Below, piece after piece: positions 7,676-57,880 of a stretch of DNA of 64,000 nt (positions within the stretch are counted from its first letter, which is position 1; each line of letters starts with the position of its first letter). The stretch lies in assembly GCA_025800285.1 (NCBI GenBank), contig JAOXRX010000039.1, positions 10,006 to 74,005 on the forward strand, given 5' to 3'. Origin of the DNA: Alphaproteobacteria bacterium. GTDB lineage: Bacteria; Pseudomonadota; Alphaproteobacteria; JAOXRX01. A model generated the notes under the pieces. That model was given only the letters and a program-made list of their open reading frames with translations. It had not been told where the DNA came from and made no database searches. The position numbers and the translations under genes were made by a program.

Positions 7676-9011
7676 ATATTGCGATACCTTTTACAATTTC
7701 AATAGATCTGTTTAATTGATAATCATCTTTTTTATCACCAGAATTATCTTTGTTTTTAGGGTTTTTATCTTTTTTTTCACCCTTTTCTGGATTTTTAAGA
7801 GCCCCCTTCAAATCAGCTTCTTCTATTAGATATTTCTCCCAATCATTCTCTTTTTCTTTAAGCTCTTCATTTTTAATTTCGATATCTGGATCTATACCAA
7901 GAGCTTGTATAGAGTGTCCACTTGGAGTGTAATATCTTGAAGTTGTCATTTTTACAGCTGTTTTACCATTAACTAAAGGATAGATTGTTTGCACTGACCC
8001 TTTACCGAAAGATTTTGTTCCAACTATTACAGCTCTTTTATGATCCTTAAGAGCACCAGCAACAATTTCTGATGCAGAAGCAGAGCCTTGATTTATAATA
8101 ACAACTATTGGTTTTCCATTTGCTTTATCTCCATTTGCAGCAAAAAACTTCATATTATCAACAGAATCTCTACCTTTTGTTGAAACTATCTCGCCACCAT
8201 CTAAAAATGCTTCTGAAACAGCTATTGCCATAGTTAAAAGCCCTCCAGGGTTATTTCTTAAATCTAAAACATACCCATCAACATTAGCTCCAATTTCATC
8301 AAAAGCGGTTTCTAGCTCTGATTTAGTTTTTTGACTAAAAGTTGCAACTCTTATATATCCAATATTATCTATAACATCGCTTTTTACAGAGTCTATATTA
8401 ATTATATCTCTAACGATTTTAACATCTCTAGGTTCTCCTTTTAAACCTTGACGAACTGTAAGTGTGATATCTGTACCAGGCTCTCCTCTCATTCTATCTA
8501 CTGCATCATTTAAATCTATACCTATAATAGCTTCACCATCCAGATGAGTTATAAAATCACCGGACATAATACCTGCTTTTTGAGCTGGAGTATCATCTAT
8601 AGGAGAAACAACTTTTACAACCTCATCCTCTGTTGTAATTTGAATACCTAAACCACCAAACTTTCCAGAAGTTGAAACTTGCATATCTTCTAGCTCTTTT
8701 TCATCCAAGAAAGATGAGTGAGGATCCAAAGATTTAAGCATACCATCCAAAGACAAATCTATTATCTCTTTATATGTTTTTTCATCTACATATCTTTGTT
8801 TAACAAGAGATAAAACTGCTTCAAACTTTTCAAGTTGTTTATAAGCATCTTGGAGTTCATCATAAGTCATGACCATGCCCTTTGGAGCATTATCTACTTT
8901 TTTTGTTTCTAATTTTTTATTATTTGCTGTTGCATTATAACCGCTAATCATTATAGCGATAAAAAACACGAAAAATCTTTTCATAAAAACTATCCTATCC
9001 CTGAAATTCAT
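7620..9011 (-). CDS. ctpA: carboxyl-terminal processing protease (S41 family)
   Basis: PDZ segment (GGLGIQIT), S41 catalytic region VLDLRNNPGGLL and GSASASEIVAGAL. Confidence 0.9.
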   Translation of the reverse strand: MNFRDRIVFMKRFFVFFIAIMISGYNATANNKKLETKKVDNAPKGMVMTYDELQDAYKQLEKFEAVLSLVKQRYVDEKTYKEIIDLSLDGMLKSLDPHSSFLDEKELEDMQVSTSGKFGGLGIQITTEDEVVKVVSPIDDTPAQKAGIMSGDFITHLDGEAIIGIDLNDAVDRMRGEPGTDITLTVRQGLKGEPRDVKIVRDIINIDSVKSDVIDNIGYIRVATFSQKTKSELETAFDEIGANVDGYVLDLRNNPGGLLTMAIAVSEAFLDGGEIVSTKGRDSVDNMKFFAANGDKANGKPIVVIINQGSASASEIVAGALKDHKRAVIVGTKSFGKGSVQTIYPLVNGKTAVKMTTSRYYTPSGHSIQALGIDPDIEIKNEELKEKENDWEKYLIEEADLKGALKNPEKGEKKDKNPKNKDNSGDKKDDYQLNRSIEIVKGIAIYAKQNDYKEADKKVEDVK

Positions 9012-15482: not shown

Positions 15483-15536
15483 TTTTATAAATGGCGAACT
15501 CGACAGGATTCGAACCTGTGACCTACTGCTTAGAAG
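15483..15536 (-). repeat. direct repeat of the 3' 45 nt of tRNA-Arg plus 9 nt of flank (attR-like remnant)
   Basis: 54 nt identical to 19460-19513; truncated, so not a functional tRNA. Confidence 0.85.
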
Positions 15537-15837
15537 CAGAGACAGCTTTAAAGAAATAAATCAACTAAAACAAAGTCTTAGCTAGACACACAAATCCTTT
15601 CAAAGACACTTTCGTTTTATTAATTGTTGCTAATCATTGCTATTTGTTGCCTATTATTGTCCTCCAGATGCTACCCACTTTGCTACCCATTTTATATACG
15701 ACTAACTGTTATAAAAACAGTCAGTCACAGAAAATTAAAGAAACAAATATACATTAAACAACTCTTTTTAATGCTTAGTATATTTAATATTAAAAAAGAA
15801 GGGCTTTTAAAAGCCCTTCTAAAAACAATAATAAAAT

Positions 15838-16080
15838 CTATTTTTTTATTTTATCACTTTTTTCTCGGTTTGCTTCCCAATGAAGAGGTTGTAAATTTCT
15901 AATATTATTAGAACCACCTTTGGACTTAGGATGCTTATGATCCACTTCCCAACCATACTCACCTAAAGTTCCATATGAAGGTTTTCTAATTTTATTGCCG
16001 TTAGAATCTCTTCTCCAAACATCTGGGTTTTTTCCTCTTATAGGCTTACCTTTATCCCAAATATTGTCTATTTTAGACAT
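15838..16080 (-). CDS. small HNH endonuclease
   Basis: EVDHKHPKSKGGSNNIRNLQPLHWEAN, an HNH motif with conserved His/Asn. Confidence 0.65.
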   Translation of the reverse strand: MSKIDNIWDKGKPIRGKNPDVWRRDSNGNKIRKPSYGTLGEYGWEVDHKHPKSKGGSNNIRNLQPLHWEANREKSDKIKK

Positions 16081-16143
16081 AGTTAAGTTCCCTTTCTTGA
16101 AAATACTTAGTCTAATGGGCAGAATATAATTCTACCCATAGCT

Positions 16144-16392
16144 TTACATAACTCTTTTATAATTATAGATATCTCTTATATGGTTATGAAAAAATTTACC
16201 ATGAGATGATGCATTCATTAAATCTTTAAAAAGATTTTCAGACACACCATAATATTGGTAAACACTATTATTGTGAAAACCAACTTCAAGGATATTTCTA
16301 TCATAACCAATATCATTAATCATAGAAGATTTTACATACTTTCTAGTCATCATGTATCTCCATATTATTGAGCATTTTAACCACACACTCAA
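16144..16392 (-). CDS. KTSC domain-containing protein
   Basis: 82 aa; pattern YDRNILEVGFHNNSVYQYYGVSENLFKDLMNASSHGKFF typical of KTSC domains. Confidence 0.55.
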   Translation of the reverse strand: MSVWLKCSIIWRYMMTRKYVKSSMINDIGYDRNILEVGFHNNSVYQYYGVSENLFKDLMNASSHGKFFHNHIRDIYNYKRVM

Positions 16393-16604
16393 TTATTAAC
16401 TTGACAAGGGTGTATAAGCATGATACTATCAAGTTCTCTCGTCTCGATAGGTTAAACCTTATCATTCGAATTTGAAGTCGCCATGTTAGTAGCATGTCGG
16501 CTTCTTTTAATATTGAAACACAACAAATCTTTCAATATTATTTCTTTATATCACCTTTATATCATTAAGTCAACTATAAAACTATTTTTTTATTAACTGT
16601 TAAC

Positions 16605-16997
16605 CTAACTATTAAGATTAGAAACAACTTTACTGTTTCTTACTTTTTTACTTTCTAAATCTATTTCTATCCAACCCCTCTCATCTATTCTTGTGTCAAA
16701 ATAACTTGTTTTTTCAGGCATTATATTAAAACAATTAAAAAAACTTTTTGCTGCTATATTAGCTCCATAAGCCCCCTTTCTTATTTTAATAGCTCCCTCA
16801 GCTGTTTTATCATTTAACATTTCAATACCTATCTTTTTACATTCTCTATCATAATACAAAACAACATAAGAATAATTATCTATTAAATATTTCTTTCTAG
16901 AACCTTGGTTCAAACCTATATTTCCATTTGTATTTACCGAACACCTCGGAGAAAAACTACCTCCAACTTGTGTAAATTTTTGATAAGCCATAATCAA
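16605..16997 (-). CDS. hypothetical protein (130 aa)
   Basis: ORF co-oriented inside the islet between the methyltransferase and KTSC genes; no recognisable motif. Confidence 0.4.
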   Translation of the reverse strand: MIMAYQKFTQVGGSFSPRCSVNTNGNIGLNQGSRKKYLIDNYSYVVLYYDRECKKIGIEMLNDKTAEGAIKIRKGAYGANIAAKSFFNCFNIMPEKTSYFDTRIDERGWIEIDLESKKVRNSKVVSNLNS

Positions 16998-17097
16998 CCT
17001 CCTTGCAAAATAAAAGACTATAAAAATAGTTATATACTATTTTTATAGTCTTGTCAAGCAGTTTACATCACTTAATACACCCAGTTAATAAACCACA

Positions 17098-18351
17098 CTA
17101 AAACAACTCCCCTTGTTTATCTGTGATAATTTCTTCTTTTTCTATAATCACATCTTCTATATCAAACTTTTTATCTAACATAGCTATTAAACACCTACCT
17201 ATATGATATCCTAAATTAACAGGGACTGCATTGCCTATTTGTTTATATTGAGCACACATAGAACCTTTAAACTCCCAATAATCTGGAAATGTTTGTATTC
17301 TTGCATATTCTCTAACATTTAATGGTCTAGTTTCCTCGGGATGACATCTTTCAGTTTGTTTCTGAGCTGGAGAACAAGTTAAAGTTAAACTAGGTTCATC
17401 CCATGACAACCTTCTAGCCATTCCTGTTCTTCCCCCCGTATGATAAAAACTTTTTCCCATATATTCTTTTTGAACTTCTTCAGGCAAATCTCTCCAACAC
17501 CCTCCTGCAGGAACTTGTTTTAAAACTTTATATTTCTTCTCGGGATATTTTTGTCCTTCAGACTTAGGACAATCTTTTAAAGCTTCCCTCATAGAAATTG
17601 TATAATCTTTTTCTTTTGGAAATATAAAAGGTATATTTAAGTCTTCTCTTATAACTATTATTATCAACCTTTCCCTTTTTTGAGGAACATCTAAATATTG
17701 AGATCTTAATACTTTATAATGAACTTTGTATCCCAATTCCCTTAATGCATTACACATTGTTTTTAATGTTTTACCATTATCATGTCTTAAAAGACCTTTA
17801 ACATTCTCTCCAACCGCAATTTTAGGATTAGTTTCTTTGATACATCTTGCAAATTCAAAAAACAAAGTTCCTCTTGTATCTTCAAACCCCATACTTTTAC
17901 CAGCATAACTAAATGTTTGACAAGGGAATCCTGCTTGCACTATATCAACTTTATTTCTATATTCTTTAAAATCAAGATTTCTAACATCTTCATGAACTAT
18001 GTTAGCATTAGGAAAATTAAATCTTAATGTTTCAACCGCACTTTTATCTATTTCATTTAATAATAAATGATTTAAGCCTGCATTTTCAAATCCTAAAGAA
18101 GTTCCTCCCGCTCCTGCAAAAAGTTCTATTATATTATAGTCTGTTTTTATATTACTTTTTAAAATTTGAAAATTATTATCATTAGAAACTCCATTTAATT
18201 TAGAATTTAATCTTTGCACTTCCTCCAAATCAAAAACTCTATAATTTTTCTCATCTCTTTGAGATTTTATAAGACCTTTTTTATCCCATCTTCTAATTGT
18301 ATCTACAGAGACTTCTAATTCTTCACTTACCTGATGAACTGTTAAATTCAT
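17098..18351 (-). CDS. DNA (cytosine-5)-methyltransferase with an N-terminal MerR-type HTH (SsoII/Eco47II-like architecture)
   Basis: motif I ELFAGAGGTSLGF, motif IV GFPCQTFSYAGK, motif VI VGENVKGLL; N-terminal 45 aa form an HTH (VSVDTIRRWDKKGLI). Confidence 0.85.
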   Translation of the reverse strand: MNLTVHQVSEELEVSVDTIRRWDKKGLIKSQRDEKNYRVFDLEEVQRLNSKLNGVSNDNNFQILKSNIKTDYNIIELFAGAGGTSLGFENAGLNHLLLNEIDKSAVETLRFNFPNANIVHEDVRNLDFKEYRNKVDIVQAGFPCQTFSYAGKSMGFEDTRGTLFFEFARCIKETNPKIAVGENVKGLLRHDNGKTLKTMCNALRELGYKVHYKVLRSQYLDVPQKRERLIIIVIREDLNIPFIFPKEKDYTISMREALKDCPKSEGQKYPEKKYKVLKQVPAGGCWRDLPEEVQKEYMGKSFYHTGGRTGMARRLSWDEPSLTLTCSPAQKQTERCHPEETRPLNVREYARIQTFPDYWEFKGSMCAQYKQIGNAVPVNLGYHIGRCLIAMLDKKFDIEDVIIEKEEIITDKQGELF

Positions 18352-18448
18352 TATTTCAACTCCTTTAAAAAATAAAATTCATTACTATAAATTATATATA
18401 GCAATACCCATTGCATAATGCAAGGGTTATTTTATATTTTTATAAATT

Positions 18449-19171
18449 TTATTGAAATGCTCTATCAAAAAGCTCTTTAAACAAAGGGTCTTTAATGATT
18501 TTCTTTTTATCATTTTTAACTATATCAGATATTATATGAGGCAAAACATTGTATAAGTCATAGATAGCATTCTTATCTCCAGTTGCTATTTCATAAAAAG
18601 TAGCTCCATCAATTTCTCTAATATTTTTATTCTTAGGTCTTCTTTTCCCTGCTTTTCTATTATCAGATGGAGTAAATTCTTTATCAAATCTCTTTTTAGT
18701 TAATATGGCAACATAATAAGCAACATATCCTTCATATTTAGACTTAGTTAGAGATTTTAAATCATCATATATTGCAACTTTATGATTACCTTTTGTAGTG
18801 TTAAATTTATTTTTAATTTCAGCTATAATTTTTTTATCTTTATTTACTAAATCTGCCACTCCTCCAGTTTTTAAGTCTTTCCAACCAATTACTCTTCCTA
18901 GAATCTTTTGATGAAAATTGCCAATAGCATTCTGCAAACTTTTTTGGATTTGTCTTGATTTTTCAGTAGCTAACCATTCTTCTAAAGACATCTTATGAAA
19001 AGAAGCATCAAATAAAGCAGAAAAAGGATCTACAATATTAGAATGCAAATCTTTTTCTATATCTTTAGATTTAACTTCTAAAACATCAACTATCTCCTGA
19101 CATAATTCATATAAATCTTTTTCACTAATCCATTTAAGTTTTTTCATAAATAACCACCTTAATTTAAACAT
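18449..19171 (-). CDS. putative type II restriction endonuclease (PD-(D/E)xK), partner of the adjacent methyltransferase
   Basis: GGVADLV ... IIAEIKNK gives a D...EIK nuclease core; immediately upstream of the methyltransferase in the same orientation; gene sizes (240/417 aa) resemble Eco47II/Sau96I-type systems. Confidence 0.5.
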   Translation of the reverse strand: MFKLRWLFMKKLKWISEKDLYELCQEIVDVLEVKSKDIEKDLHSNIVDPFSALFDASFHKMSLEEWLATEKSRQIQKSLQNAIGNFHQKILGRVIGWKDLKTGGVADLVNKDKKIIAEIKNKFNTTKGNHKVAIYDDLKSLTKSKYEGYVAYYVAILTKKRFDKEFTPSDNRKAGKRRPKNKNIREIDGATFYEIATGDKNAIYDLYNVLPHIISDIVKNDKKKIIKDPLFKELFDRAFQ

Positions 19172-19468
19172 ACTTATGTGTTTATCACTATATATTTAAA
19201 AAATCAAGTTTTTTAATTGCACCAATTTTGCACTATGACTGACTGATAGTTTTTCAGATAACCTGCAACAGCTAACACATTAAAATATAACAATATTATT
19301 GTAACATACTGCCATAATAAATTATATTTTTGAAAAAAACATCGTTGAAAGCTACTGTCACAAAGAGTTTGCAAGTTTGCTACCCACCTATAAAATCACT
19401 ATTTTTTAAACTTAAATTTAAACAAATAAAAAACCCGTCAAAGCTAGTGCTGACGGGGTTTTATAAAT

Positions 19469-19545
19469 GGCGAACTCGACAGGATTCGAACCTGTGACCT
19501 ACTGCTTAGAAGGCAGTTGCTCTATCCAGCTGAGCTACGAGTCCT
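19469..19545 (-). tRNA. tRNA-Arg (anticodon TCT)
   Basis: 77 nt cloverleaf folded by hand; anticodon loop cttctaa; CCA encoded; followed by a terminator hairpin. Confidence 0.85.
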
Positions 19546-19566
19546 CTTGCCGTTATTAGTTCAAAT

Positions 19567-19644
19567 GGTCGGGATAGCAGGATTCGAACCTACGACCCCT
19601 TGTACCCAAAACAAGTGCGCTAGCCAGACTGCGCCATATCCCGA
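19567..19644 (-). tRNA. tRNA-Pro (anticodon TGG)
   Basis: 78 nt cloverleaf; anticodon loop tttgggt; T-loop ttcgaat; CCA encoded. Confidence 0.8.
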
Positions 19645-19774
19645 TTGAACTGAGCATTTTATACACTCTTTTTTAAAAAAAATCAAGTCTTTTTTTATTT
19701 TTTTTAAAAAATATTTAAATTAACCATTTATTAACATAAAAAAATATATTCATTGATTATGTGTTAATAAATAG

Positions 19775-20491
19775 TTAATTAATTCCTTTATACATTTCCA
19801 TTAATGCTTTTTTTCTAGCTTGTAATTTAACAGGAGCTTTTTTCTCTTCCAGACTTACCTCATCATGACCCTGATTTTTATCTGAGAATTTATCTCTTAT
19901 ATACATCTCTGCTTTATATATATTACTATCTATAAAGTCAACTATATCTCTACTAGTCTCTCTAGGGCCATACATTAAAAAAGCCAACCCAGCCCCTAAA
20001 GAAGTTGTTGTAATAGATGTAAACCTTAAAGTCCTTCTAACACCCTCTTTGGCAAGCTCTATTTTACGAAGCTTTTTACCTCTTACCATATAATCTTCAG
20101 ACAATTTATCTTTTGATGTAACTTGAGCTGCAAAATCATGCAACTCTATATTTTTAACATTAGGATCCTTAACAGCAGATATAATTGCTTGATAACCACC
20201 TAAAATACTTCTATAGTAGCACTCTTTATTTCTTTTGTGTTTATAATACCTTCTTAGCACTATTTTCTTTGGTTTTAATAATGCTTTACCCAAAATAGAT
20301 TTTTTTCTATATTTAGATAAAAAATTAGCATATTTACCATGCCATTTCGTAGCAATTTCATTAGTATAAGCATATAAATAAAGATACTTCTCATCTATAG
20401 TACCATCAAATTTAGGTTTTAATCTTTTTCTAAAAAATAAATTAAGAGAACGAAAGCCTCTCCATGTTTTACCTATTACTTTACCTATCAT
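19775..20491 (-). CDS. hypothetical basic protein (238 aa)
   Basis: ORF only; K/R-rich; no family recognised. Confidence 0.4.
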   Translation of the reverse strand: MIGKVIGKTWRGFRSLNLFFRKRLKPKFDGTIDEKYLYLYAYTNEIATKWHGKYANFLSKYRKKSILGKALLKPKKIVLRRYYKHKRNKECYYRSILGGYQAIISAVKDPNVKNIELHDFAAQVTSKDKLSEDYMVRGKKLRKIELAKEGVRRTLRFTSITTTSLGAGLAFLMYGPRETSRDIVDFIDSNIYKAEMYIRDKFSDKNQGHDEVSLEEKKAPVKLQARKKALMEMYKGIN

Positions 20492-20652
20492 AAATCATCC
20501 TCTTAATATTGTTGAACCAAGTACTTTACATATCAAATATTATCATATATATTCTTTGAATGCAATATATTTATAATAATTATTCAATAAAATAAGAAAA
20601 AGCTTGACATAGTTATTTAAAAGATAGATAATGAAGTTACAGAACAAATATT

Positions 20653-21078
20653 TTGGGAGAAGATATTATGGATTATGTACAAAGAGACTCAAGAGAGGTT
20701 TGCAGTAGAGTTGAAGCCCACACTAATAACTTAGGAGGATTCCTGGATGCTTTTGCTGTACTTTACCTTGCATCTTTAAAAGCGATAGCTTATACAGCAA
20801 TATTTTATATTAAAAGGCCAAAAACTTTTTATCACCATGCGCTGTTTGCATCCACCTGTTTTTTAGGTTCACAATTTGCATCTAGTGGAGCGACAGATTT
20901 ATTGGCTGATAAATTTATAGAATACAAAAGATCTAAGTATGTTAAAAGCTGTTTAAAAACACCAGAAAACACAAACAAAAAAGATATTATAAAAAAATTT
21001 AGAGAAACAGTAAAAAAAGAAAATGCTTCAATAACAACAAAAAAACAAAGACCTACAAATTTAACAGCAAGCATTTAA
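20653..21078 (+). CDS. hypothetical protein (141 aa)
   Basis: ORF only; one hydrophobic segment; basic C-terminus. Confidence 0.35.
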   Translation: MGEDIMDYVQRDSREVCSRVEAHTNNLGGFLDAFAVLYLASLKAIAYTAIFYIKRPKTFYHHALFASTCFLGSQFASSGATDLLADKFIEYKRSKYVKSCLKTPENTNKKDIIKKFRETVKKENASITTKKQRPTNLTASI

Positions 21079-21162
21079 TATAATTAACATTACTCTATAG
21101 CAAAAAAAGAAGCTTTATATACATAAAAAGCTTCTTTTTTTTTATGACAAAACACACTTCAA

Positions 21163-22419
21163 TTAATCATTAGAAATATTTTTAAAAATATTTAAAACCC
21201 CCTTGACTCTACCATCATTAATTCTAGGTCTAGAGTCAATATTATTATCAACAGATGCAATATATTTAGGAATTACATTTACAATACTACTTTTTAATTT
21301 GTCTAAACCGCCCCACTTATCATACTTACTAATATTCACCCCTGAATAACCAAGACTTACATATAAATTATTTTCCCCATTAGTTTCTTTTATAAATAAA
21401 GAAGAGCTTTTAACATTAGACCTCTTATTATAAGAATTATACATAACAACATTATCTATAACAGGAAGACCTCTAGTATCATTGTATAAATTCAAAGTTT
21501 CCTTTAAGAAAAATGGATAAAGATCTTTTGGATTTACAACACTCAATGCTTCATCAATATCATCTATAGCCTTAAAATATTTTTCATTAAATGGATCGTA
21601 TAATTCTAAATTAATCATATTAATATTAGCTAACATCTCTTTACTTTGCCTTGAATCTATAGAACTTTTTTTAACCAATATAGAAAAGTCTTTCCACATA
21701 GGACTTTCAAAATAAGATTTCAAAAACCCCCTACCATTATCATTACGATCAGACTGGAAAGCATCTAAGGGACTAACTTTTACCTCCTCAAAATATATAA
21801 TTAATGTTTTATCTTTAAGATTTGATACAATCCTATTTAAACCAGACACAGCATCATTTACTTCTTTCTTTGATAACGCATCCATTTCAGTTTTTGAAAC
21901 GGTTTCCATATACTCTTCATAATTAAAAAATACTTTTGGCAAATTAGTTTTATTTTTTATACCAATCCCTGTTGTTACTAACCAGCCTGAAAGAGCCCCT
22001 CCCAAAACCAAACAAGTTGTATTTTTTAACCAATTCTTAACACTATTTAAAGCTTTGTCCCCATCTTTTCTATCACCAAGCATTTTAGAGTATATAGAAT
22101 TTCTATGCTTTTTGAATCTTTTCAAAAAGATTCTCAAAGAATTACTTCTGTCTTTCCCCTGTTCTAAATCCTTAATTAAAATATTCTCTATACAACTATT
22201 GGTTTTTCTGACATGATCACAAGTATCTTTAAAACAATCAAAAGAAATCTGATTACCGCACTTAAAAACATCTTCAATATTATAAAGATTAACTATATCC
22301 TCTGTTTTTAAGACCTCCGCCTTGTTTAAAGTTTTGTTTACAGATTGCACTTTAAAGTTAGAAATCGACATATTACCCCCTTTAAAAATCATTTTTTTAC
22401 TTTTATAAGTATAACACAC
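21163..22419 (-). CDS. hypothetical protein (418 aa) with one predicted TM helix
   Basis: ORF only; sits next to the large membrane protein; no family recognised. Confidence 0.45.
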   Translation of the reverse strand: MCYTYKSKKMIFKGGNMSISNFKVQSVNKTLNKAEVLKTEDIVNLYNIEDVFKCGNQISFDCFKDTCDHVRKTNSCIENILIKDLEQGKDRSNSLRIFLKRFKKHRNSIYSKMLGDRKDGDKALNSVKNWLKNTTCLVLGGALSGWLVTTGIGIKNKTNLPKVFFNYEEYMETVSKTEMDALSKKEVNDAVSGLNRIVSNLKDKTLIIYFEEVKVSPLDAFQSDRNDNGRGFLKSYFESPMWKDFSILVKKSSIDSRQSKEMLANINMINLELYDPFNEKYFKAIDDIDEALSVVNPKDLYPFFLKETLNLYNDTRGLPVIDNVVMYNSYNKRSNVKSSSLFIKETNGENNLYVSLGYSGVNISKYDKWGGLDKLKSSIVNVIPKYIASVDNNIDSRPRINDGRVKGVLNIFKNISND

Positions 22420-32768: not shown

Positions 32769-33130
32769 ATCATTCTGAGTGTAACGAAGAATCTTTTCAT
32801 GCTTGAGAAATCTTAACTAACACTCAGTGGCACAAGAAGATTCTTCTTCGCTTCGCTCATCAGAATGACCGGCTTGGAAAAATGGTAATGTCATTTTGAG
32901 CGACTGCAAGGAGTCGAAAAATCTTTTCATCATGATATATTATTATATTGTCATTCTGAACACAGTGAAGAATCTTTTCATGCTTGTGGAATGTTAATTT
33001 ATATCCAGTAACACAATGAGATTCTTCACTACCACACAAGTGTGTCCGTTCAGAATGGCGACAAATAAAAAGTTTGGCACTGATTTAAAACAGTGCGATT
33101 CTTCTTCGCTTCGCTCATCAGAATGACTGT
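32769..33130. repeat. cluster of four hairpin-forming palindromic elements (RPE-like family), two complete (~110 bp) and two partial
   Basis: termini cattctga ... tcagaatg and gaagaatctt ... aagattcttc are mutually complementary; the same family recurs at about 50.1, 52.1, 56.6 and 57.8 kb. Confidence 0.8.
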
Positions 33131-48673: not shown

Positions 48674-50050
48674 ATGTACTCAAATAAACTGAATAAAAAA
48701 GGAAAATTTTATATGTACAGACCATCAAAAAGAGAAAAAGACGAATTAAGACAGTTTTCAATAGAACCAGATTATATGGGAAACCCAGAAGGTTCTTGCA
48801 TGGTTAAAGCGGGAAACACTCATGTATTATGCGTTGCTACTGTAGAAAAGTCAGTGCCAATGTTTTTAAGAGGAACTGGTAAAGGCTGGGTAACTGCTGA
48901 GTATGGCATGCTACCTCGTTCAACAGATCAAAGAATGAGAAGAGAAGCTACTATTGGCAAACAAAGCGGAAGAACTCTGGAGATACAAAGACTAATTGGC
49001 AGATCTTTAAGAGCTATCATAGATATGGATAAGCTAAACGAATATCAAATTAAAATAGATTGTGATGTTATCAGAGCCGATGGAGGCACTAGAACAGCAG
49101 CTATATCAGGAGCTTATGTTGCTCTTAGCAAAGCTGTGGACTTCATGTTAGAAAAAGGGATAATAAATGAAAATCCAATCTATGAACAAGTGGCTGCCGT
49201 ATCTTGTGGCATCTTCAAAGGAGAGCCTGTATTAGATTTAGATTTTTATGAAGATTCAAATGCTCAAGCTGACTCTAACTTTGTTTTAACAGCTAGCGGT
49301 AAAATAATAGAAGTTCAAGGTACTGCCGAAAAAGAGCCTTTCTCTAAATCAGAACTAATGGAGCTTTTATCTCTAGCAGAAAAAGGAGTTTCAGAAATAG
49401 CTCAAGAACAAAACAGAGCTCTTAAAAAAGGTGCTAACCGTAGAAAATTCAAACCAGGTGATGAAATAATTATTGCCACTCATAACATGGGTAAATTTAA
49501 AGAGTTTAGAAATGCCTTAGCTCCATATACAGAGAATGTTCTATCAGGAAATGATATAAACTTACCAGATGTAGAAGAAACAGAAGACACTTTTGAAGGT
49601 AATGCTAAGCTTAAAGCTATAGCTGGAGCAAAGCATACTGGTAAAATTGTAATAGCTGATGATAGCGGTTTTTGTGTAAAAAAATTAAAAGGAAGACCGG
49701 GAGTATATTCAAAAAGGTTTGCTGTTGAAGTTGGGAATGGAAAAGAAAACTATCCTGCAGCAATTGCAAAATTAAATGAAGAGCTAGGAAACAACAAAGA
49801 CAGAAGAGCAAGTTTCTGTTGTTGTTTAGTAATTGCTTGGCCAGATGGACATACAGAGACTCTAAATGGTAGAGTTAACGGCAAACTATTAAAAACATTA
49901 CAAGGTGAAGATGGTTTTGGTTTTGACCCTGCATTTGTTCCTAATGGACACGATAGAACTTTTGCTGAAATGAGTTTAGAGGAAAAGCAGAAACTTTCTC
50001 ATAGAGGAAAAGCTTTATCTTCTTTAATTGAAGAAGTATTTGAAAAGTAA
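48674..50050 (+). CDS. rph: in-frame fusion of ribonuclease PH (N-terminal ~250 aa) and the RdgB/HAM1 dITP/XTP pyrophosphatase (C-terminal ~200 aa); likely start near 48713
   Basis: Rph motifs ([14 protein letters not shown]) then linker [10 protein letters not shown], then RdgB motifs ([31 protein letters not shown]) with no intervening stop. Confidence 0.8.
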
Positions 50051-50089: not shown

Positions 50090-50325
50090 TGTCATTCCCC
50101 TGAAAAGGGGAATCTTCTTGTGCTACCCCCCTTTTTCTTTTTTAGTCATTCTGATGAGCGGAGCGAAGAAGAATCTCACTGTTTTAAATCAGTGCCAAAC
50201 TTTTTATTTGTCGTCATTCTGAACGGACACACTTGTGTGGTAGTGAAGAATCTCACCGTGCTACTGGATATGAATTCACATTACACAAGCACGAAAGGAT
50301 TTTTCACTTTTTCAGAATGACAAGC
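50090..50325. repeat. cluster of RPE-like palindromic elements (one complete ~110-bp copy at 50213-50322 plus partial copies)
   Basis: gtcattctgaacggacacacttgtgtgg ... ttcagaatgac termini; same family as 32769-33130. Confidence 0.8.
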
Positions 50326-50343
50326 AAATAAGAAGGCATAAAA

Positions 50344-50370
50344 AAAGCTCCCAAAACAGGGAGCTTTTTT
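50344..50370. terminator. bidirectional terminator after the BspA-like LRR gene
   Basis: hairpin aagctccc-aaaaca-gggagctt flanked by A6 and T6. Confidence 0.8.
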
Positions 50371-50388
50371 AAACAATAAATAACTTTG

Positions 50389-51906
50389 TTAATTAGAACT
50401 AAATACCCAACCTTTCCCCTCTAAAGTTGCTTTAGCAGATGAACATGTAGCATCTGAACAAGTATTGCCCCCAACTCTAATACTTCCTGTATTTTTCAAC
50501 TTAGCATTTGAATTAGAAATAGTTGATAGAAAACTAGAGTATATAGATGAAGACACTGAAGATGAGTAATCAATTACTGATAAGTTCGATGCATTCATCA
50601 TACTATTTAAATAAACTACTTTAGTTGTATCTAATCCACTAAGGTTTAAATTAGCTATATTATTTAAACCAGTATAACTATCTCCACCAAACATATTAGT
50701 CATATTTGTAACCTTGCTTGTATCAAAATTACTTATATCTAGTGTAGTTAAGCTCTCTAGGCCATAAAACATACCATTAGGGTCGACAAGACTACTTGTA
50801 TTAAAGTTGCTCACATCTAGACTTGTTAGCTTTTTCATACCGCCAAACATAGCAGCTGTATGTGTTACATTACTTGTATCAAATGAACTAACATCTAGTG
50901 TAGTTAAGCTCTCTAGCCCCCAAAACATATCACCCATATTAGTAACCTTCCTTGTATCAAATGAACTGATATTTAGACTTGTTATATTATTCGCATTCTC
51001 AAACATACTATTCATATTTGTTACATTACTTGTATCTAGACCTCTCAAATCAATATTTGTTATATATTCAGCATTATAGAACATCTCTGACATATCAGCC
51101 ACACCGCTGGTATCACAATCCCCCGCAGTAAAAGAAGTCAAACGAGAATAAGAAAAAGAGCGATTAAAGCTTTTCCAACCCACATTGCCTAAGTTTTCAA
51201 CTGTTTTCATTTTTGTAGGAACATGGCTAATATAAGGGAAATCCCCTGTTATTTTAACAGTCTTTCTTCCTCCAGTACTATATGTATGTGTAATATGGTA
51301 ATTTGTAAAATCATTACAATCACTGTCATCATCCCAACAAATTCTACCATTATATCCACTTGAAACTTTAGTAGGGAAAATTATTGTATCTCCAGCATTA
51401 ACTTCCCATGTTGTAACAAAAGGATTTTCTGCCACAGCATCACTAACATCAATAGAAGCGATTTTAGTTCCTTCTTGAACTTTATTAACTACTGCTGATA
51501 GGGTTATGTTTACTGTTCCACTTGCTTTTGCTTTTGCGATTGTTAGAGTTCTATTTGCTCCAGTTCCTGTAATGCTAACATCACTCGCTAAAACAACATC
51601 TTCATTCGCTAAACTAAAGCTAACAGCTACATCGTCTGCATTTATACCTCCTGAAGGAGTCAAAGTAATAGCAAATGTTTTATTTGTATCACTAGCTTTC
51701 ATAGAAATGCTTTCAACCGCTATACTTACACTTCCTTGTTGTTCCGGATTTTCACTACCATCAAATGGAGTGGCAGGGTTAGCTTGTAAACTACCTGATA
51801 AATTCTCGAAATAATAATAATCTCTTGCATGTGAAATTCCAACTGCTGAGCTTATAAACGAAACAGCTATAGCTGAAAGTAAAAGCTTATTAGATAATTT
51901 TTTCAT
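50389..51906 (-). CDS. BspA-type leucine-rich repeat surface protein (bacterial surface protein 26-residue repeat family) with signal peptide
   Basis: at least 7 tandem copies of L..LDTSNVTNM..MF...N.IT.L.IS.FDT; N-terminal signal peptide; beta-rich N-terminal domain. Confidence 0.75.
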   Translation of the reverse strand: MKKLSNKLLLSAIAVSFISSAVGISHARDYYYFENLSGSLQANPATPFDGSENPEQQGSVSIAVESISMKASDTNKTFAITLTPSGGINADDVAVSFSLANEDVVLASDVSITGTGANRTLTIAKAKASGTVNITLSAVVNKVQEGTKIASIDVSDAVAENPFVTTWEVNAGDTIIFPTKVSSGYNGRICWDDDSDCNDFTNYHITHTYSTGGRKTVKITGDFPYISHVPTKMKTVENLGNVGWKSFNRSFSYSRLTSFTAGDCDTSGVADMSEMFYNAEYITNIDLRGLDTSNVTNMNSMFENANNITSLNISSFDTRKVTNMGDMFWGLESLTTLDVSSFDTSNVTHTAAMFGGMKKLTSLDVSNFNTSSLVDPNGMFYGLESLTTLDISNFDTSKVTNMTNMFGGDSYTGLNNIANLNLSGLDTTKVVYLNSMMNASNLSVIDYSSSVSSSIYSSFLSTISNSNAKLKNTGSIRVGGNTCSDATCSSAKATLEGKGWVFSSN

Positions 51907-52065
51907 TTGTTTCTCCTCTCAAAATATAAATGAAATTTATTTTAGATTATTTTATACATATCATTCTTATAATGTCAAGATAATAGATGTTTTTTTTGAT
52001 TATAGTATATTATTATTTTTTATATACCTCATCATTACCTATCTTTTTATTGTAATTATGATAAT

Positions 52066-52335
52066 CGGAGCGAAGAAGAATCTTCTTGTGTTGCTGGATT
52101 TACCCTTCTATTCCGTCATTCTGAACGGACACACTTGTGTGGCAGTGAAGAATCTCACTGTGCTACTGGATATAAATCAATATTACACAGGCATGAAAAG
52201 ATTCTTCTTCGCTTTGCTCATCATAATGACGGGGAATAGTGAGAATGATGAAAAGATTTTTCATTTTGTTCAGAATGGGGATATAATAATATAGCATGGT
52301 GAAAAAATTCTTCCTTGCACTTAGAATGGTGGGAA
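52066..52335. repeat. cluster of RPE-like palindromic elements; the copy at 52115-52203 is a ~90% direct repeat of 50212-50300
   Basis: cgtcattctgaacggacacacttgtgtggcagtgaagaatctcactgtgctactggatat ... aligned against the 50.2 kb copy. Confidence 0.8.
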
Positions 52336-52377: not shown

Positions 52378-52692
52378 TTATTTATTTAAAATGCTATCTG
52401 CTGTTTTTAAATCTTCTAAAACATCTTTTAAAGAGTCAATTAAAACTTTATCTATCTTATTATTTTTTGCATTTAACTGTTTAATAGCACCTTCAATTGT
52501 TAATTTTTGAGTAGTTAGTAAATCATTTATCTCTTTTAATAAAGAAATATCATCTGGTCTATAGAATCTTCTTCCACCAGATCTCTTCATAGGTTGAATC
52601 TTATTAAATTTAGTTTCCCAGAATCTTATAGTTGATGCATTTCTGCCTATAATTTTAGAAACTTCACTTATGTTATAAAAATTCTTTTCCAT
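52378..52692 (-). CDS. MerR family transcriptional regulator
   Basis: N-terminal HTH YNISEVSKIIGRNASTIRFWE; conserved position downstream of ihfA in alphaproteobacteria. Confidence 0.75.
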   Translation of the reverse strand: MEKNFYNISEVSKIIGRNASTIRFWETKFNKIQPMKRSGGRRFYRPDDISLLKEINDLLTTQKLTIEGAIKQLNAKNNKIDKVLIDSLKDVLEDLKTADSILNK

Positions 52693-52695
52693 ATC

Positions 52696-52989
52696 TTACT
52701 TTTTGTTTACCATATCTTTTAGATGTTGACTTGCTTTGAAGCTTACAACTCTTCTTGGAGTTATCACACTTTCTTCACCTGTCTTAGGGTTTCTACCAAT
52801 TCTCTCTGCTTTTTGTATCAAAGAAAAAGTACCAAAACCTGATATTTTAACATTATTGCCTTTAGACAATGCAGAAGAAATTATATCAAAGAAATCATCC
52901 ACAAAATCCGCACATTCATTTCTAGATAACCCTAATTCTTGATAAACTGCTTCGCTAAGTTTCATCCTTGTAACTGTATTTTCTGGCAT
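52696..52989 (-). CDS. ihfA: integration host factor subunit alpha
   Basis: 97 aa HU/IHF fold; GFGTFSL and RNPKTGEESVITPRRVVSFKAS arm motif. Confidence 0.9.
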   Translation of the reverse strand: MPENTVTRMKLSEAVYQELGLSRNECADFVDDFFDIISSALSKGNNVKISGFGTFSLIQKAERIGRNPKTGEESVITPRRVVSFKASQHLKDMVNKK

Positions 52990-56697: not shown

Positions 56698-57776
56698 TTG
56701 TAGATGTCAAGTAATTCGTGGACAGTTTTCATTAAATTCTATAGGAGTTTTCCCATTTAATCCTTGATGAGGTCTTTCCTCATTGTAATAACATAGATAC
56801 TCTGCTAGGTTTTGTTTAAAATCCTCAATGCTATCAAAGTCTGTGTCTTCTATTAAATCTTCATGCAAGGTTTTCCAAAACCTCTCTATCTTTCCATTGG
56901 TTTGGGGCCTATATGGCTTTGTGTACCTGTGTTTTATTCCATAATATTTTAATAATCTCTCAAATGGATTTGTATCTTTGTTTTTCTTATCTGGTCCTTG
57001 ACCAAACTCACTGCCGTTATCTGATAATATTTCTTTAAACTTAATATCTGTAAACTCACTAAATGCTCCAAGCATATCCATACTTGCAAACATCACTGTT
57101 AAAGATTTTTTATCTTCTATTAACTCTACAAAAGCTATTCTTGTAGCAGCATCAATTAATCCAACCAAATAGTGACTCTTATTAACTTCTAATAATCCTT
57201 TAGGTAAGTTATAACAGTCTATATGACCTAGCTCTCCCGCTTTTTCTTTTATTATCTTCCTTCTATTATTTTTCATTTTCTTTTTCAACCTCTGCATTCC
57301 TTTATCTCTTAATATATTATATATGGTTGATGGACTAGGAGTGTACTTATGATATTTTCTTTTTAAGATACTATGGATCTCATACCTAGAGCAACCTTTC
57401 TCCCTTAACTTTATAATACTTTCCTCTATATTGTAAAGAACCGTCCTTCTTTTTTTAAATTTCGGACCTCTTTTTAATGGAGCTACTCCTTTAGGACTAG
57501 GGTTTTGCTTATATTTATTTATATATTTATAAAATGCTTGCCTAGATATATGATGACTATCATATAAATCTTTTACATATTTATACCTTTTATTTTTACC
57601 TTGCTTTATTAAATTATGCTCTTTTATTAAGTTTTCTATAAATAAAAAATTATTCCTTAATAATGTTTCGTCTTGTGAATTCTTTAACTTTATGCTCATT
57701 ATTCGTTCCTTTCCTTCGTTAAATTCATCTTCTTATATTTAACGAAAACTGTCCACGAATTATTTAACATCTACAA
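56698..57776 (-). mobile_element. IS481-family insertion sequence with 31-33 bp imperfect terminal inverted repeats, inserted into a palindromic repeat element
   Basis: left end gtagatgtcaagtaattcgtggacagttttc; right end reverse-complement gtagatgttaaataattcgtggacagttttc (29/31); flanking TTC/ATTC duplication. Confidence 0.85.
56707..57699 (-). CDS. IS481 family transposase (DDE)
   Basis: N-terminal HTH; catalytic core SDNGSEF ... RPQTNGKIERFWKTL typical of IS481/IS3-like DDE integrases. Confidence 0.85.
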   Translation of the reverse strand: MSIKLKNSQDETLLRNNFLFIENLIKEHNLIKQGKNKRYKYVKDLYDSHHISRQAFYKYINKYKQNPSPKGVAPLKRGPKFKKRRTVLYNIEESIIKLREKGCSRYEIHSILKRKYHKYTPSPSTIYNILRDKGMQRLKKKMKNNRRKIIKEKAGELGHIDCYNLPKGLLEVNKSHYLVGLIDAATRIAFVELIEDKKSLTVMFASMDMLGAFSEFTDIKFKEILSDNGSEFGQGPDKKNKDTNPFERLLKYYGIKHRYTKPYRPQTNGKIERFWKTLHEDLIEDTDFDSIEDFKQNLAEYLCYYNEERPHQGLNGKTPIEFNENCPRIT

Positions 57777-57880
57777 TTCTGAGTGTAACGAAGAATCTTT
57801 TCATGCTTGTGGAATGTGAATTGATATCCAGTAGCACAGTGAGATTCTTCTTCGCTCCGCTCATCAGAATGACCGGCTGA
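57777..57880. repeat. right portion of the RPE-like palindromic element split by the IS (left portion ends at 56697)
   Basis: tgagtgtaacgaagaatcttttcatgcttgtggaatg ... cgctcatcagaatgaccggc matches the element at 32769-32876. Confidence 0.8.

Follow-up and report, generated by a model that had tools for sequence, protein, structure and literature searches.

The stretch of DNA analysed here, called the window, comprises 64,000 nt of contig JAOXRX010000039.1 from an alphaproteobacterium, and coordinates are positions within this 64-kb window, with the strand in brackets. The gene in question, at 50389-51906 (-), encodes a 505-amino-acid (aa) repeat protein followed by a stop codon. From the call of its open reading frame (ORF) and its profile matches, it is a gene for a PARCEL/DUF285 protein, predicted to be secreted and listed as "BspA family" in NCBI naming. 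An earlier reading of the letters alone, hereafter the original prediction, had described a secreted BspA-type surface protein of the same length, inserted as a cassette between direct copies of a palindromic element, with grpE and rph-rdgB on one side and ihfA on the other. The ORF is as described and so are the neighbours, except that a merR-family gene lies between the repeat-protein gene and ihfA.

The left syntenic anchor is a fused rph-rdgB gene at 48674-50050 (+), which encodes RNase PH plus Ham1/RdgB according to Pfam and is convergent with the PARCEL gene; beyond it lies grpE at 48055-48576 (-), from its ORF call and Pfam. The right anchor, likewise assigned by Pfam, consists of the merR-family gene at 52378-52692 and an ihfA/HU-family gene at 52696-52989, both (-). 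The neighbours are housekeeping genes, and no mobility gene or plasmid is associated with the PARCEL gene. The composition of the gene (GC content 0.335, GC content at third codon positions (GC3) 0.188, codon distance 0.122) is inside the window's range throughout. Recent horizontal transfer of the gene was considered and rejected on this native GC, GC3 and codon usage. In NCBI, MCV6599327.1 is 100% identical to the window protein and MCT4574653.1 is the version from a second strain (strain 2, below); both are named [quoted passage not shown].

Family and architecture of the protein

What kind of protein does the gene encode? The profile search proposed with the original prediction gave a match to TIGR02167 at 4.4e-44, in five stretches and with 147.6 bits against a cutoff of 30. 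Pfam DUF285 matches at 2.3e-32 (111.7 bits; cutoff 25), and for LRR_8 the score is 30.8 bits (cutoff 27). No match to LRR_5 (PF13306), the family of BspA itself, was found in the Pfam results at E<=0.01, nor at E<=5. With TIGR02167 and DUF285 both far above their cutoffs, the outcome that was named as refuting the original prediction, no LRR_5/TIGR02167 profile match, did not occur. The description as a BspA-type surface protein holds only as NCBI's loose name, because LRR_5 has no match and because the repeat unit is 26 residues long. The period of the BspA repeat is ~23 residues. The likeness to BspA of Tannerella forsythia and LrrA of Treponema denticola, which are LRR_5 proteins, extends to the predicted exported solenoid resembling leucine-rich repeats (LRRs) and to the NCBI label; it gives no ground for assigning BspA's roles in adhesion and invasion to the window protein. 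The case separates DUF285 "BspA family" annotations from true LRR_5 BspA adhesins, two groups that are commonly conflated. The protein is a member of the PARCEL/DUF285 family: Roske et al. 2010 (PMC2996958) described the PARCEL family, which is defined by the TIGR02167 and DUF285 models.

The repeat region agrees with the claim of at least seven tandem 26-residue units. A hidden Markov model (HMM) built from four units finds seven domains at residues 259-436 (50599-51132, (-)), of which five are canonical 26-mers, one has a 5-aa insertion and one is degenerate, and the DNA of the tract has a 78-nt period in five copies. The units are predicted to form an LRR-like solenoid. The AlphaFold model has a predicted local distance difference test score (pLDDT) above 90 at residues ~250-400 and of at least 74 up to ~440, with the rest of the protein modelled poorly. 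The top Foldseek neighbours of the model are LRR ectodomains (FLRT2, LRRTM2, VLR/repebody and TLRs), none of them at E<1e-3, because the multi-domain model is poor overall; a sequence search of the PDB gave only a marginal TLR2-VLR match. The repeats are followed by a C-terminal cap at residues 437-505 (50392-50598, (-)), which has low AlphaFold confidence and a conserved C..(S)D..C.SAK..L...W.F motif that is kept in the homologue P0372, described below.

PARCEL proteins have a patchy distribution, are prone to horizontal gene transfer and are mostly targeted to the membrane or the surface; many members carry an open frame on the opposite strand (PMC2996958). The window protein resembles the mycoplasma members LppQ and LppC of Mycoplasma mycoides and MbovP0145 of M. 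bovis in its HMM matches, in its tandem ~26-residue amphipathic units of unique sequence, in its predicted N-terminal export signal, in its patchy distribution (relatives lack it at this locus) and in its opposite-strand open frame. It differs from them in that the host is a diderm alphaproteobacterium and the signal is a plain Sec signal, not that of a lipoprotein. It also differs in that its repeats are fused to a lineage-specific module found on GLUG proteins as well, and in that its repeat DNA has no dyad symmetry above chance: there are no inverted repeats at seed 7 in the repeat-coding DNA, and neither reverse-complement k-mer counts nor per-unit fold energies are above those of dinucleotide shuffles. 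This leaves PARCEL membership standing, because the dyad symmetry, originally found with MEME, is a signal that divergence can erase (PMC2996958). An experimental precedent for the family is MbovP0145, a DUF285 protein that is secreted and binds beta-actin (PMC8707762). The opposite-strand frames in the window are two antisense ORFs of 90 and 102 aa, at 50807-51079 (+) and 51506-51814 (+), one of which spans the repeat tract; they are probably not genes.

The secretion of the protein, also part of the original prediction, is suggested by its N terminus. Residues 1-27 (51826-51906, (-)), read from the sequence as MKKLSNKLLLSAIAVSFISSAVGISHA before RD, would be a Sec signal peptide of the signal peptidase I (SPI) type. 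By inspection, there are n-, h- and c-regions ending SHA/RD. The mean hydrophobicity is 2.23 at residues 8-24, the sole hydrophobic segment in the protein, and the first cysteine is at residue 190, with no lipobox cysteine. Since there is one hydrophobic segment and no cysteine before residue 190, the N terminus looks like that of a Sec/SPI substrate and not that of a lipoprotein.

Two further modules lie between the signal peptide and the repeats. The first, at residues 28-161 (51424-51825, (-)), is lineage-specific, as judged from a HMMER search, pairwise comparisons and an alignment; it has an A[RL]xYYYFxxLxG...PF..D motif followed by a beta-rich immunoglobulin (Ig)-like region, and AlphaFold places beta strands at residues 76-155 with a pLDDT of about 55-65. 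The second, the "FVTTW..." module of about 95 aa at residues ~162-252 (51151-51423, (-)), was delimited with HMMER and is poorly modelled by AlphaFold. It recurs 4-9 times in giant (2-5 kaa) proteins elsewhere and is faintly PKD-like (PKD E=0.06). An exhaustive HMMER search with residues 28-255 as the query found 1181 proteins at E<=1e-3, with the best stretches at query positions 130-225. Residues 28-161 are matched by only a few of these proteins (P0301, P0365 and P0372), all at the same N-terminal position. P0372 (468 aa), known from a 1.9-kb contig of JGI 3300072015, is an end-to-end homologue with 33% identity that keeps the leader, the FVTTW module and the Cys...Cys cap and has fewer PARCEL units. 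Beyond the same species, no orthologue above 39% local or 33% full-length identity was found among billions of proteins.

The other two proteins have GLUG repeats as their C-terminal part and are 46% (P0301; 526 aa) and ~37% (P0365; 886 aa) identical to the window protein in the N-terminal module. Their genes, at 6561-8141 of contig L050 and 8001-10661 of contig L051, have the signal peptide, the ARxYYYF motif and the Ig-like module in common with the PARCEL protein. Both contigs come from Logan run SRR15960039, which also gave a contig (L029) 100% identical to the window; the GC content of both equals that of the window, and at the end of L051 there is a fragment of the palindromic element. 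Because of the common sequencing run, the equal GC content and the element fragment, the organism very probably has a small family of exported proteins in which a YYYF leader and an Ig-like region are fused to different repeat passengers. P0301 and P0365 are probably paralogues of the PARCEL protein with swapped passenger domains. The leader common to PARCEL and GLUG proteins is the most interesting lead from this work. A bolder proposal, that the N-terminal ~160 residues are an undescribed export or anchoring leader module of an uncultured, probably host-associated lineage, grafted with PARCEL or GLUG passengers and with the hypervariable palindromic arrays as possible recombination substrates for the shuffling of domains and genes, is one we put forward as speculative and rather unlikely. 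If the organism is a symbiont or a parasite, the PARCEL protein and its two GLUG relatives would be the first candidates for host-contact factors, which is a lead and not a result.

The gene has candidate expression signals of its own. The best site in a promoter scan is a sigma-70-like TTGACA-18-TAAAAT at 51949-51978 (-), with 11/12 matches and 43 nt upstream of the ATG, in a scan whose total number of sites equals the chance expectation. A Shine-Dalgarno sequence, GAGGAGA, can be read at 51912-51918 (-), 5 nt before the ATG. Both the promoter-like site and the Shine-Dalgarno sequence are identical in strain 2, and the predicted promoter would drive the PARCEL gene. On the other side, between the convergent rph-rdgB and PARCEL genes, a bidirectional intrinsic-terminator hairpin at 50341-50370, AAAAAAAGCTCCC-AAAACA-GGGAGCTTTTTT, has a dG of -12.1 kcal/mol and a z-score of -5.9.

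Palindromic elements on both sides of the gene

As the original prediction had noted, the gene is flanked by two similar segments in the same orientation. These direct repeats (50212-50305 and 52114-52207) both lie on the + strand and share 89% identity across 94 nt; their 29-nt perfect core occurs three times in the window, against zero expected. Each side is more complex than a single segment, consisting of one full element plus partial elements. The left array, at 50091-50321 (+), contains a small hairpin unit (50091-50128), a half element (50145-50200) and a full element (50213-50321), with fold z-scores of -5.2 and -3.3. The right array, at 52052-52335 (+), contains a half element (52052-52114), a full element (52115-52230; fold z-score -2.4) and degenerate fragments (52240-52335). 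An nhmmer census of the 64 kb, from which both arrays were mapped, detected five full and several partial copies, spread over four intergenic sites. The two sites not linked to the gene are at 32769-33130 (-), with full copies at 32769-32869 and 32950-33059 and a half element at 33073-33127, and at 57773-57873 (-), with a full copy that is interrupted at one end by a strain-specific insertion sequence (IS). Every copy in the census lies between called ORFs, and none is inserted inside a gene.

The elements are imperfect palindromes of 101-116 nt with inverted termini GTCATTCTGA...TCAGAATGAC. They form long imperfect hairpins, and the five full elements fold better than shuffles, with z-scores of -5.2, -4.2, -2.4, -2.1 and -1.6. 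No Rfam family was found in the region, and blastn gave no plasmid match for the flanking element. The elements had been called RPE-like (Rickettsia palindromic element), and they are indeed real palindromic elements of RPE-like or MITE-like (miniature inverted-repeat transposable element) form, with hairpin folds and multiple copies. They resemble RPE, Correia, REP/BIME and ERIC sequences in being short imperfect palindromes with inverted termini that are multi-copy, dispersed and nested or arrayed. They share with RPEs spurious translatable peptides and an AT-rich alphaproteobacterial genome, a likeness by form and not by consensus comparison. In contrast, in-frame insertion into genes is the hallmark of RPE-1, whereas all copies in the window are intergenic. 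The shared peptide that had been noticed on both flanks, ILNGHTCV[VA]VKNLTVLLD, is present in the ORFs at 50120-50320 and 52058-52294 and is a mere translation of the repeat.

Are the two flanking copies specially related to each other? The left and right copies are 89% identical, the left copy and the 33-kb copy are 89% identical, and the right copy and the 33-kb copy are 90% identical. The similarity is thus family-wide, and the flanking pair has no special relationship, because each of its members is equally like the unlinked copy. This lends no support to the proposed acquisition or excision of the gene by recombination between the copies. Moreover, the composite at 50145-50321 in the left array recurs at 32950-33130 (-). 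Further element copies are present in contigs L025, L030 and L051, and hairpin elements with similar GTCAT...ATGAC termini are found in spacers of two related contigs, L027 and L026, both without a PARCEL gene. With four occupied spacers among about 55, ~0.2 adjacent occupied pairs would be expected by chance, by our own estimate. The elements are most likely a dispersed, fast-turning-over MITE/RPE-like family that colonises intergenic spacers in this clade, and bystanders to the gene, not its vehicle. A more general caution is that two copies of a dispersed palindromic repeat need not bound a mobile cassette.

The IS that interrupts one end of an element, at 56699-57775, is 1,077 bp long and contains an ORF for a 330-aa rve-family (DDE) transposase at 56707-57699 (-). 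It is absent from strain 2 (L030), and a 5-bp overlap at its junction suggests a target-site duplication. It is a genuine within-species presence/absence polymorphism of mobile DNA.

Origin of the gene in the rph-rdgB to merR-ihfA interval

The original prediction had proposed comparing the grpE-ihfA interval in related genomes, and related loci were found through homologues of the fused Rph-RdgB with 78-99% identity. In two relatives, rph-rdgB is followed directly by merR-ihfA: L027 (80% Rph-RdgB identity) has a 378-bp spacer that holds hairpin elements, and L028 (78%) has a 62-bp spacer with a terminator only. Neither interval contains the PARCEL gene or remnants of it. Because these two relatives have rph-rdgB next to merR-ihfA, the gene can be seen as an addition in the window lineage. 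In a neighbour-joining (NJ) tree of Rph-RdgB, the window, L027 and L026 group together to the exclusion of L028, so that L027 and L028 are paraphyletic to the window lineage; given this placement of L028, one gain is more parsimonious than two losses. Relatives are few and represented by short contigs. More distant ones (Rph-RdgB identity of 59% or less) have another gene order (hrcA-grpE / rph, rdgB, hemW) and are uninformative for the site; the nearest named species-representative genome is a Holosporaceae metagenome-assembled genome with 59% identity.

The terminators of the relatives add to this comparison. In L027 and L028, a bidirectional hairpin equivalent to that in the window follows directly after the merR stop codon. 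In the window, the hairpin is right behind the PARCEL stop codon and merR has none. The position of the terminator fits insertion of the gene and its upstream region between merR and the old terminator, although this is only suggestive.

Strain 2 is represented by two contigs of Joint Genome Institute (JGI) sample 3300045489. One of them, L025, has 99% Rph-RdgB identity and ends 355 bp past the stop codon, inside repeats; the other, L030, reached through IhfA, has in order ihfA, merR, the 505-aa gene and a 245-bp stretch of repeats. Window and strain 2 are colinear over 50293-52184 at 97.6%, but the outer edges of both arrays hold different elements. The two PARCEL proteins are 99% identical. 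Their genes differ by seven synonymous and six non-synonymous changes, with a ratio of non-synonymous to synonymous substitution rates (dN/dS) of 0.23 and a dS of 0.022; for 14 neighbouring genes pooled, dN/dS is 0.11 and dS is 0.035. The gene is under purifying selection and, within the species, is as old as its surroundings. Positive selection was considered and rejected, with dN/dS at 0.23 on 13 substitutions. No deletion variant was recovered in conspecific contigs, where short-read assemblies break in the arrays and sampling is very thin. Scanning metagenomes for the 3' end of rph-rdgB that is specific to the species gave no match, and a protein rescan gave only a truncated contig with 86% identity; both results are uninformative. 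One candidate deletion variant, the end of L025 joined to right-flank sequence, was rejected: the common composite is only ~90% identical, which makes it a paralogous copy at another locus.

We consider it probable that the gene encodes an exported PARCEL binding protein and was gained once in a convergent spacer, with the palindromic elements as bystanders. The protein would be Sec-exported and consist of three parts, the N-terminal module, the PKD-like FVTTW module and seven PARCEL repeats as an LRR-like solenoid, and its role would be extracytoplasmic protein-protein binding, possibly directed at a host, in the manner shown for some DUF285 proteins of mycoplasmas. The gene would be a single addition to the spacer between rph-rdgB and merR-ihfA, made after the split from the ~80%-identity relatives and before the divergence of the sampled strains. 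It would have its own promoter and Shine-Dalgarno sequence, and it would end at a hairpin terminator in the position of the relatives' merR terminator. The palindromic elements of ~100-116 nt would be bystanders that settle in spacers. An exported LRR-like binding protein is the most likely function, with experimental precedents only in mycoplasmas, and a host-adhesion or invasion role is plausible by analogy only. As to the direction of the event, we infer a gain. If so, this is a clean case in which a conserved housekeeping interval of a small, AT-rich alphaproteobacterial genome has acquired a PARCEL/DUF285 gene, with an empty site and two strains to document it.

Several points weigh against this reading. 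The export of the protein is a prediction made by eye, and in a diderm a Sec signal without a lipobox, an autotransporter domain or a type IX secretion system (T9SS) domain leaves surface exposure unproven. That L050 and L051 belong to the window's organism is likely, not proven. The choice of gain over loss depends on only two informative relatives, since the neighbourhood in L026 (78%) is rearranged, and on an NJ tree of one gene whose internal branches are short; the sample has a gap between 80% and 99% identity. Only the window's own assembly joins rph-rdgB to the gene across the left element, and the other conspecific assemblies all break in the arrays; L030 and the synteny in relatives are consistent with the join. 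The likeness of the terminators is generic (A-tract, GC stem, T-tract). Finally, the native composition of the gene fits an old resident equally well.

Indeed, the gene could be ancestral at the locus and have been deleted independently in the related lineages, with nothing inserted at all. Native codon usage and GC content favour this, as do the N-terminal module common to paralogues that are probably in the same genome and the full-length homologue with 33% identity elsewhere, which indicates that the architecture is old; reduced genomes also lose genes readily. However, such a history needs two losses on the Rph-RdgB tree, which left no remnants in L027 or L028 and, in L028, a minimal spacer of 62 bp with only a terminator, and the lack of orthologues above 39% local (33% full-length) identity outside the species also speaks against it. 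We therefore regard an ancestral gene as unlikely. Alternatively, the ORF might be a PARCEL sequence in decay or a silent reservoir, without current function. This idea takes its support from PARCEL ORFs without a clear role, for which variant reservoirs have been proposed (PMC2996958), and from the antisense ORF that is open through the repeats. It is hard to reconcile with a 505-codon frame that is intact in two strains at a dN/dS of 0.23 and with a conserved signal peptide, Shine-Dalgarno sequence and strong promoter-like site, and it appears highly improbable.

What of the cassette that the flanking repeats first suggested, with homologous recombination between the two directly repeated palindromic elements carrying the gene into or out of the chromosome? 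In its favour, the repeats have the same orientation and a 29-nt perfect run within their 94 nt at 89% identity. In strain 2, too, the gene lies between direct copies of the same subfamily (93% over 77 nt). Between strains there is clear recombination or turnover in the arrays, related lineages lack the gene at the site, and PARCEL genes are known as mobile (PMC2996958). Against this stand the 89-90% identity of each flanking copy to an unlinked copy and the retention of the gene in both sampled strains, with a dS like that of core genes. The composition is native, and no junction or deletion variant was recovered, with assemblies that break in the arrays and metagenome scans that are uninformative. 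The empty spacer of L027 already holds hairpin elements, so the elements are independent of the gene. On the assumption that the terminators are homologous, the left copy lies beyond the terminator and does not bound the extra DNA. In addition, two adjacent occupied spacers of four among ~55 are not unusual, and the bounding repeats have no target-site duplication or attachment-site (att) signature. A cassette of this kind is, in our judgement, improbable, and we favour the single gain with bystander elements.

Other features of the window and its relatives

The window contains a segment with which the PARCEL locus can be compared. A perfect 54-nt direct repeat has copies at 15483-15536 and 19459-19512, the second of which is the 3' part of tRNA-Arg(TCT). 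The ~4-kb segment between them encodes a C5 cytosine methylase fused to a MerR helix-turn-helix (HTH) domain (17098-18351) and an Eco47II-type restriction endonuclease (18449-19171). The whole, 15483-19512, looks like a restriction-modification (R-M) islet integrated at a tRNA with att-like repeats, with no integrase seen. Such direct-repeat genomic islets and the PARCEL locus are alike in having an accessory gene between direct repeats among housekeeping genes. They differ in that the islet has perfect repeats that duplicate a tRNA 3' end in an att-like manner, whereas the PARCEL gene has 89%-identical dispersed copies without a site-specific signature.

The anchor genes vary in their organisation across relatives. 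In the 48055-50050 interval of the window, and in the homologues P0121-P0125, rph and rdgB form one 458-aa ORF, whereas L001 and L002, which are more distant relatives, have them as two separate genes that overlap. In the latter two, hrcA lies between grpE and rph; it is missing in the window. V-type ATPases are unusual in alphaproteobacteria, and L026, the rearranged 78%-identity relative, has V-type ATPase subunits (ATP-synt_ab, ATP-synt_C and V_ATPase_I) near rph-rdgB, at 16607-21338.

A second LRR gene, at 47175-48017 (+), encodes a 280-aa protein without a signal peptide that is conserved in strain 2 (L025 8502-9344). Its weak similarity to FNIP repeats and to the LRR regions of type III effectors (SspH2, EspK/GogB) makes it a possible secreted effector. 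Lastly, 7957-8261 (+) has a marginal Rfam match to Rickettsia sRNA47 (Rp_sR47), with 61.1 bits against a gathering score of 60; there is an overlapping 463-aa ORF on the other strand, and conserved coding sequence may be all that the match reflects.

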